IMG/VR virus record: IMGVR_UViG_2681813261_000026
DNA length: 26,781 nucleotides
From: a virus
Lineage: Duplodnaviria > Heunggongvirae > Uroviricota > Caudoviricetes
Direction: 5' to 3' (one strand)
Shown: positions 18,001 through 21,000 of the stretch, one piece after another
Numbering within the stretch: position 1 is the stretch's first letter
Layout: every line of letters begins with the position of its first letter
Made by a program: the position numbers

Positions 18001-21000
18001 CTCATAGACAGTTGCATGTCGCAGCGGGGCGGCTTCCCGCTGCGCGGTCATCGCTGCCGAGACCCGCATCATGTGGCGCTGTGCGGGACTCGTCATCGGT
18101 TACGCTCCCGGCTCTGCGGTCGCTTTAGCCGGTGTGGAGAAATCACCGACCTTAATTTTTTCCACCAGACAACCGGCGGCGTAGTCCTCCACCACGTAAT
18201 CAATGTTCATTGACTCGTAGTTCTCCACGCGGTCGAGTTTCGGGTTTTCCACAATCACGCGGCGATGGCTGTCATCCATGTAGTAGATGGACAGGTTTTC
18301 CAGCTTCGTGATGAGCATCGCATCCGCCGGGAAGTACGGGACGCGTACCGCCGGCAGGTTACCGATGCGTTTCTGGCTGATGATGACGTCAGCGGCCAGC
18401 ATCTCGCTGTTATCCTGCTCCTTGTTGACGATAGGGAAATACTTGTCCGCCAGTAGCTGACGCCCCACAATCACCACAAGGTCAGGGTCTTCCTGATACC
18501 AAGGTTCAATCAGGTTGTTGGTCGCATCCATCACCAGTGCATCGAGGCTTACATAATCACCGCCCTTACCCACGCGGATAACCTCAGAGGTGGTGCGGCC
18601 TTCCTCGTCAGTGACCTTGCTCATCACGCGCGCCGGGGCTTCATTCGGTATTTCTGCAGCCAGCCGACCGCCACATCCTGCAGCATCGGATTACTGTTGC
18701 GGTCAGAGGTTTCGGCACGCTTCACGCCGTTAAAACCGGCCATGATGAAATCAAGGGACTGGCGTTTGATAATGGCGTTACGGATACGGAGCTGGAAATC
18801 CTGATAACGCGCCCACAGGTCAAGCGTTTTGTAGCGGATATAAAAATCGAAGTTAACCTGGTCGCATTCGTACTTGTTTGACGCCAGCTTCGAGAAGTCC
18901 TTCGGCTGACGCTCGGTGCCACCGGCGGTGTCGGTGGTGCTGGCGATGGAGCCGGTGACACCGATGCCAATTTTTTCCCCTTTCATTTCACTGACCGGCA
19001 CAATGTTGATGCGGGTCAGAAAGTCAGAGGACTCCTGCATGGTGTTCATCAGGGTCTGGGTGACCGACGGTTCAACGGTGAATTTTTTCGACACATCACC
19101 GGCGTCGATGCCGTTCAGCTCGGCAACACGGGACAGGTAAGCATTAAATTTAAAGCGGGTTTCCTGGCGCATAGTTTTTCCTGAAATTAAGGGTTAATCG
19201 TGAAGGTTTTCCCGGACTGACTGACGCCGGTCAGCAGTTCGTCATCAGGGCGTCACCGCCACCACCGGTGGCCTTGCTGCGGCGCTGCTGGGTCAGACTT
19301 TCGGTGTGGTCGAGACTGTTTTTCAGGCGGGTGAATGCCTGGCTGGTTTCATCCGCCCTGTCAGTCACCTCCTGCTTAAGTGCAGAAAAGGCGGTTTCCA
19401 TCTCAGCGAGGCGCTGCTCAGTGGCGCTCAGTTTTTCCTGCACATGTTCAGCAACAGCGGTCACCGCTTCATGCACGTCATTCAGACGGGCATCATCGCT
19501 GGCCTGTTTGCGGCCAAAAATGGATTTCACCTTTTCGGTCAGGGCGGTGAACACGGTTTCAGGCAGGTCTTCAAATTCCAGCTCAACAGGCGTTGCCACT
19601 GAAATCAGGTTTTCAGGGCTTAATTTGAAGCGGTTCAGGGGGTTGTGTTTTGCCGTGCGGCAGAATTCCAGGTATTCCGTGCCGAGGCTTGCCGGGTCAT
19701 CGGTGACGGCCAGACCCACCAGATAACATTTGCCGGTGTTGGCAAAGTTCGGCTGAATTTCCATTGAGGTGTAGACCTTCTGCGCGGCCTTGTTCATCGC
19801 GATAAGGTCATCGGTCGGGGTGATTTTCGCAAACAGCGCCCATTTGCCTTTCAGCGCCGAATCATCGTCAATCTTTTCGGCCTTCAGTTCGGCCACATCG
19901 CCATAACGCTTAAAAATACCGTCAGGCAGGATGCCGCGCAGATGTTCCAGGTTAATGCGGCAACCATAGACACGCGGGTCAAAGGTTTCGGCCATTTCCT
20001 GAATATCCTGCGCACTGATGACACGCCCGTCACAGGTGTCACCCTCAACGCCGATACGAAAGAATTTTGAGACTTTTTTTGCCATTGTCAGGAGTCCTGA
20101 ATAGTGATTAGAGGAGTCACATGTCGGCATCAGTTTCCCGACGATGCGCATCCTCCGCCATCAGTCCCGGATGGTTTATCACTGACACAACAGCACATTA
20201 GCGAATCGCGGGGCGCGACTCAGTAGCCTTGCCGTGTATTCATCACGGCGAGGTATTCATGACCATCACCACAGACACCACTCTTTTACACGACCCGCGT
20301 CGTCAGGCGGCGCTGCTGTACTGGCAGGGGTTTTCCGTGCCGCAGATTGCCGCCATGTTGCAGATGAAACGCCCGACGGTGCAGAGCTGGAAACAGCGCG
20401 ACGGCTGGGACAGTGTTGCCCCCATCAGCCGTGTCGAAATGAGTCTGGAAGCGCGGCTGACCCAGCTCATCATCAAACCGCAGAAAACCGGCGGTGACTT
20501 CAAGGAAATTGACCTGCTCGGACGCCAGATTGAACGACTGGCACGGGTAAACCGCTACAGCCAGACCGGCAACGAGGCAGACCTTAATCCGAACATCGCT
20601 AACCGCAACAAAGGCGGGCGTCGCAAACCGAAAAAGAATTTTTTCAGTGACGAGGCCATCGAAAAGCTGGAGCAGATTTTCTTTGAGCAGTCTTTCGACT
20701 ATCAGTTGCACTGGTATCGTGCCGGGCTTGAGCACCGCATCCGCGATATCCTGAAATCCCGCCAGATTGGCGCGACGTTTTATTTTTCCCGCGAGGCGCT
20801 GCTGCGCGCCCTGAAAACCGGCCATAACCAGATTTTTCTGTCGGCCAGTAAAACGCAGGCGTATGTGTTCCGTGAATACATCATCGCCTTTGCTCGTCTG
20901 GTTGACGTTGACCTGACCGGTGACCCGATTGTCCTGGGCAATAACGGCGCAAAACTGATTTTTCTCGGCACCAACTCCAACACCGCACAGAGCCATAACG

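Follow-up and report, generated by a model that had tools for sequence, protein, structure and literature searches.

P2-like phages carry the gene for their major capsid protein, gpN, between O and M, in the order O-N-M, and the protein is described by the Pfam profile PF05125 (Phage_cap_P2) and by the structure PDB 7jw1. R-type pyocins and other R-type tailocins keep an intact P2-type tail, baseplate and lysis module; their clusters are without any head genes and have their own regulators. The A-Q region of P2-like prophages is a known defence hotspot (PMC9122126). Pseudogenes caused by frameshifts and IS insertions are documented in Shigella sonnei, where 14% of CDS are affected in one or more genomes (Hawkey et al. 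2020, PMC7373316), and ISSso4 is among the IS types found in S. sonnei 53G (PMC7373316).

We analysed a viral sequence of 26,781 nucleotides (IMG/VR record IMGVR_UViG_2681813261_000026, Caudoviricetes), hereafter the window, in which N is present as two ORFs. Comparison with intact genes and with other assemblies makes us highly confident that N has undergone a genuine loss-of-function deletion of one base and is an ordinary pseudogene, inherited clonally in S. sonnei.

Genomic context of the prophage

The prophage is P2-like, and the window covers its late region, beginning at the ogr stop codon (position 1) and reaching into Q. The genes follow in the order D, U, T, E, FII, FI, an orphan cargo gene, G, H, I, J, W, V, S, R, the lysis genes, X, L, M, N, O, P and Q, and the ORF order is that of the annotated prophages of Escherichia coli EC6622 and strain 3359. 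The other late genes, approximately 25, are all full length, and all genes but N and Q match the lengths of their intact counterparts. These include the small terminase gene M (17353..18096, minus strand, 247 aa), the scaffold/protease gene O (19231..20085, minus strand, 284 aa), whose exact protein is common in E. coli, and the large terminase gene P (20259..22031, plus strand, 590 aa).

The orphan ORF (7014..8432, plus strand, 472 aa) lies between the tail-fibre assembly gene G and the sheath gene FI, at the position of the Z/fun moron of P2. Its protein had no match in Pfam, NCBIfam or PADLOC; PHROG 13435, annotated as ‘unknown function’, matched over the full length. The gene is conserved in S. 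sonnei loci as well as in the prophages of EC6622 and 3359; in one other lineage (L017), IS elements have broken it. A single-sequence AlphaFold model of the protein reached a pLDDT of 38.5, which is too low for use. It is possible that the ORF represents an uncharacterised moron or defence gene.

Small length differences were observed elsewhere in the late region. The tail-fibre gene H differs by a 3-nt indel at 9470..9477, giving 771 aa in this strain compared with 772 aa in 53G, and it contains diverged internal repeats of ~130 bp (10386..10878). lysA carries a 12-nt in-frame insertion (15688..15699) relative to the EC6622 prophage.

Structure of the capsid gene N

The initial annotation described N as two ORFs of 182 and 175 aa in different frames with a 4-nt overlap, and the ORF list agrees. 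The 5′ fragment (18624..19172, minus strand, 182 aa) starts with ATG, and the 3′ fragment (18100..18627, minus strand, 175 aa) starts with GTG and lies in the -1 frame relative to it. Both are located between O and M on the minus strand, as in P2, and both belong to the same protein family: the 5′ ORF matches positions 1-170 of the PF05125 profile (E 2.5e-73) and the 3′ ORF positions 178-327 of 327 (E 5.5e-69). One uninterrupted N ORF of ~357 codons is absent from the window; the gene is split at codon 176.

The 5′ ORF ends in ...WLQKYRMKPRRA*, the 3′ ORF starts with (V)MSKVTDEEG, and the junction between them reads CTG CAG AAA TAC CGA ATG AAG CCC CGG CGC GCG TGA TGA GCA in the mRNA sense. The junction was aligned with the N genes of the P2-like phages PhiR44_1, vB_YpM_46 and PhiD252 and of the E. 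coli prophages in EC6622 and strain 3359. All five intact genes read TACCGCAATGAAGCC at this site, whereas the window reads TACCG-AATGAAGCC. The missing base is one C in TACCG[C]AATGAA, that is, the third base of the Arg176 codon (CGC), lost between window positions 18646 and 18645 on the minus strand. This places the lesion in an Arg codon, as had been proposed from the window alone. The context of the deletion is G-C-A without a homopolymer. Set against six intact genes, the N region contains no second gap, nor any indel close by that would restore the frame. Allele typing of 11 loci distinguished the deletion (CAGAAATACCGAATGAAG, five loci) from intact N (...CCGCAATG..., six loci).

The lengths of the two ORFs follow from this position. 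The 5′ fragment consists of 176 native codons, six out-of-frame codons (MKPRRA) and a TGA stop, where MKPRRA results from reading the codons of NEAPARV (residues 177-183 of intact gpN) out of frame. The GTG of the 3′ fragment at 18627 corresponds to Val183 and the ATG at 18624 to Met184, and the frame continues to the native stop. Accordingly, 182 and 175 add up to 357 because 176 native residues, seven lost ones and 174 native ones do so. It had been supposed that an intact N would run through the last residues of the first ORF into MSKVTDEEG; the latter indeed opens the second ORF, but MKPRRA does not occur in the intact protein.

When the C was put back, the gene encoded a protein of 357 aa without stops or indels, which differs from the gpN of EC6622 by a single substitution (I130V) and is present in exactly this form on 66 contigs of a public protein collection. 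The repaired protein matches PDB 7jw1 chain A, the gpN of P2, over residues 1-357 (E 1e-236), and the N DNA is 97.6-98.8% identical to the best 25 of 97 matching P2-like phage records. The break removes seven residues from the middle of the PF05125 domain. The deletion should abolish capsid formation, since each fragment retains just half of the capsid domain.

Distribution of the deletion allele

The window is a short-read draft contig (GCA_001248175.1), and a single missing base is the commonest type of consensus error. N could on these grounds be intact in the cell, with one base dropped from the consensus, as the initial annotation had allowed for. A related 454-era assembly, GCA_000281815.1 (L009), indeed carries an additional error-like deletion, the loss of one T from a T6 run; this looks like a true sequencing error, in contrast to the deletion in N.

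The split products are, however, widespread. In the protein collection, which draws on NCBI and Logan de novo assemblies, the exact 182-aa product was found on 396 contigs that their sources name Shigella sonnei; the longest is the chromosome of 53G (4,988,504 bp). The exact 174-aa second half, counted from the ATG, was found on 377 such contigs, and the 182-aa ORF is indexed in 540 collection blocks. At the DNA level the same non-homopolymer deletion was confirmed in five assemblies that different projects had produced independently: GCA_001260795.1 (L006), GCA_013910365.1 (L008), GCA_000281815.1 (L009), the complete chromosome CP179990.1 (L010), and GCA_001248175.1 (L007), whose contig CXEK01000014.1 is the source of the window and 100% identical to it. 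Over the 22.7 kb of collinearity with the intact EC6622 prophage, no other indel breaks a reading frame; the remaining gaps are a compensating pair between D and ogr, the 3 nt in H and the 12 nt in lysA. An error in sequencing or assembly is thus an extremely improbable explanation of the split.

Host flanks from GCA_000281815.1 (L012) and GCA_026013135.1 (L020) showed 0 SNPs compared with 53G, as expected of one clone. The N query from the window had no exact match among 1,541 matching records of complete E. coli genomes or 97 matching phage records, and the 1201-base query covered 1202 bases in each listed record (25 of the 97 phage and 40 of the 1541 E. coli records). An exact-pattern scan for the deletion allele gave 0 matches in a collection of genome contigs, probably because this contains one genome per species and the genome chosen does not necessarily carry the allele. 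One accession of the intact ancestral gpN, CSQ12471.1, has a prefix resembling those of S. sonnei draft assemblies, and for this reason an intact N may persist in some isolates of S. sonnei.

Scan for possible recoding at the N junction

A working capsid protein could still be produced from two ORFs if ribosomes shifted by -1 within their overlap, or if two separately translated halves reassembled. The layout offers some room for this. Both halves stay open and undamaged, and the stop codon of the first ORF overlaps the AUG of the second (UGAUG), an arrangement able to permit termination-reinitiation. Three-frame translation and a script scan delimited a zone of 22 codons that is open in two frames (18624..18690, minus strand).

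The scan found no X_XXY_YYZ heptamer in any frame within window positions 18700..18615, and the longest homopolymer in the 22-codon zone is CCCC, which bears out the earlier suspicion that the site is neither a homopolymer nor a slippery motif. As a positive control, the same scan recovered an in-frame T_TTT_TTG at 4577..4571 (minus strand), near the end of E, and thus works; this heptamer is the known slippery site of the P2 tail-chaperone pair E/E+E′, at which a conserved -1 programmed frameshift occurs. No stimulatory RNA structure was indicated in the 101 nt from the N site, where the minimum free energy was -29.6 kcal/mol compared with a shuffle mean of -32.1 (z = +0.75). Nor is the two-frame layout conserved, as all six intact relatives checked at the site have CGC and a single continuous ORF, which makes the two-ORF form derived. 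Together with the loss of seven residues in the middle of the Pfam domain, these observations leave next to no likelihood for a functional split, and the ‘rare recoding site’ raised in the initial annotation finds no counterpart in motif, RNA structure or relatives. Some reinitiation at UGAUG might take place, and both fragments might hence be produced, but neither would amount to more than half of a single structural domain. Within the limits of sequence data, we exclude both sequencing error and recoding, and a genuine one-base deletion is the reading that we retain for N.

A near-identical prophage with intact N

The same prophage was found at the same fieF-pfkA site in chromosome CP065624.1 (L011/L019), where N is intact. 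It differs from the window by 3 SNPs in 11.4 kb of tail genes and by at most 6 differences elsewhere, outside a contiguous 1.8-kb patch (window 17194..18990) that spans the 3′ end of L, M and most of N and holds 45 differences. We considered whether CP065624.1 might be an S. sonnei genome in which N had been repaired by recombination. This was rejected, as its host flank carries 45 SNPs in 8.25 kb relative to 53G, whereas the two S. sonnei flanks carry none; the host is therefore not S. sonnei. On the evidence of these alignments, a phage that is essentially the same but has a working N exists today or did so recently. The alignments also show that P2-like phages exchange the L-M-N segment by recombination, of which the patch in CP065624.1 is a clear example.

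Portal gene Q, ISSso4 and the order of lesions

The second damaged gene is the portal gene Q, of which the window holds the first 234 of 344 codons (22031..22732, plus strand), identified by collinearity with intact prophages and a weak Phage_portal match. Collinearity ends at 22732, at Q codon 234 of 344. The gene is truncated by an IS21-family element, ISSso4 (istA, istB; 22733..25368, minus strand), into which the Q ORF reads on to 22906, giving a readthrough product of 291 aa that occurs on a single contig in the collection. No target-site duplication was present in the flanks of this element (22690..22732 and 25369..25420). On its far side lies a fragment of the T6SS gene vgrG (25351..26742, minus strand), and the draft contig extends 2 nt past the end of the window. 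The Q-ISSso4-vgrG arrangement reflects either a rearrangement or deletion mediated by the IS, or two IS copies that were joined in scaffolding.

Other strains allow the lesions to be ordered. Three assemblies (L006, L008 and L009) carry the same N deletion together with an intact Q of 344 aa. ISSso4 is found at three different positions across strains: besides the window, L010 (11950..14588) has a simple insertion in Q with a 5-bp duplication at window-equivalent 22204-22208, and L020 (1..2401) has the element at the G/H boundary, near window position 9075. As the one-base deletion in N occurs where Q is intact, it is the common, earlier lesion and the IS insertions are later and strain-specific; the lesions in N and Q are independent events. 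This order fits the published picture of S. sonnei (PMC7373316).

The initial annotation had taken the split N and the truncated Q together as signs of a decaying remnant. That description holds for this strain, but the truncation of Q is limited to this assembly and was caused by ISSso4. Rather than an old remnant, the alignments suggest a prophage that was grounded recently and is now being eroded by IS elements.

Cargo genes are present in the strains with an intact Q. L008 and L009 contain GmrSD_N and HEPN genes in the A-Q hotspot as well as the early genes A, B, cox and int, and L008 additionally contains a C5 methylase and the repressor C. In L006 only the Q-side cargo is seen, as the flank stops there. 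The L008 segment 13179..16055, which is absent from the window, holds GmrSD_N, HEPN and the C5 DNA methylase, and likely represents defence cargo at the known old/tin hotspot of P2 (PMC9122126).

Discussion

The observations fit a simple sequence of events. In the N gene of a P2-like (Peduovirus) prophage, one C would have been lost spontaneously from the Arg176 codon (CGC to CG-), and the deletion would then have been passed on clonally through S. sonnei. Translation is predicted to leave the frame after residue 176, to add six wrong residues and to stop, yielding the N-terminal half of an HK97-fold capsid protein. The C-terminal half would be made, if at all, as a separate product through reinitiation at the UGAUG overlap. 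As neither half is expected to build a capsid, the prophage would be unable to make infectious particles. The mutation appears to be young, with no second lesion in the downstream part of N and the remaining element almost identical to intact prophages. It was probably the first lesion common to the assemblies examined, the ISSso4 insertions in Q and at the G/H boundary having presumably followed in single strains.

Loss of the capsid need not imply neutral decay. A headless element could itself have been selected, either as a nascent tailocin still able to make lysis proteins and contractile tails, or as a permanent vehicle for defence or other cargo. In the window every tail, baseplate and lysis gene, and also ogr, is full length, the lesions fall in the head genes N and Q, and the N deletion allele is widespread in the clone. 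Cargo is also available, in the form of the GmrSD/HEPN genes and methylase of other strains, placed in a region known as a defence hotspot, and of the orphan 472-aa gene. Against this, the head genes apart from N and Q, namely O, P, M and L, remain intact, and recent neutral decay fits better than a trimmed tailocin cluster. R-type tailocins are recognised by the absence of head and packaging genes; here four such genes are full length, and N and Q are lightly damaged. The IS insertions, moreover, also affect the tail-fibre region (L020) and the cargo gene (L017), and in a clone as young as S. sonnei fixation is possible without selection. A literature search for a P2-like defective prophage or tailocin in S. 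sonnei found nothing specific, and no published link of S. sonnei to such a tailocin came to light. We consider selection for a headless element quite unlikely, and favour a recently grounded prophage undergoing neutral decay. If selection did act, the S. sonnei strains with intact Q would be natural intermediates in the change from a phage into a tailocin.

The N pseudogene is ordinary and already known, in that it is visible in public annotation. Many S. sonnei genomes have been deposited with two ‘major capsid protein’ CDSs, which together form one pseudogene and ought to be labelled accordingly; beyond correct annotation, the split is of little consequence. The deletion allele could serve as a lineage marker. 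A common one-base lesion followed by strain-specific ISSso4 insertions also provides a clean, datable case of a prophage that was grounded and then eroded, in the setting of a young clonal pathogen.

The locus resembles several described systems and differs from each of them. Compared with the gpN of P2 (PF05125, PDB 7jw1), it has the same O-N-M synteny and, once repaired, the same length of 357 aa; through the loss of one base, it instead yields a truncated product of 182 aa and an untethered ORF of 174/175 aa. The E/E+E′ frameshift of P2 likewise pairs two ORFs that overlap in frames 0 and -1 inside a late operon, here of the same prophage, but E/E′ has an in-frame T_TTT_TTG that is conserved in relatives, whereas the N junction is without a slippery motif and its relatives have a single ORF. 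With R-type pyocins and tailocins the element shares an intact P2-type tail, baseplate and lysis module and a presumably non-functional capsid. Unlike in those clusters, O, P, M and L persist here, the lesion is one base, and there is no known killing activity. A further parallel is with the pseudogenes of Shigella genome reduction (PMC7373316), in which a frameshifting indel is likewise fixed in a clonal, IS-rich, host-restricted lineage, and ISSso4 insertions lie in neighbouring genes. The difference is that the gene lost here is a structural gene of a prophage rather than a metabolic or surface gene of the host, so that the expected consequence is an immobilised phage and not an altered host physiology.
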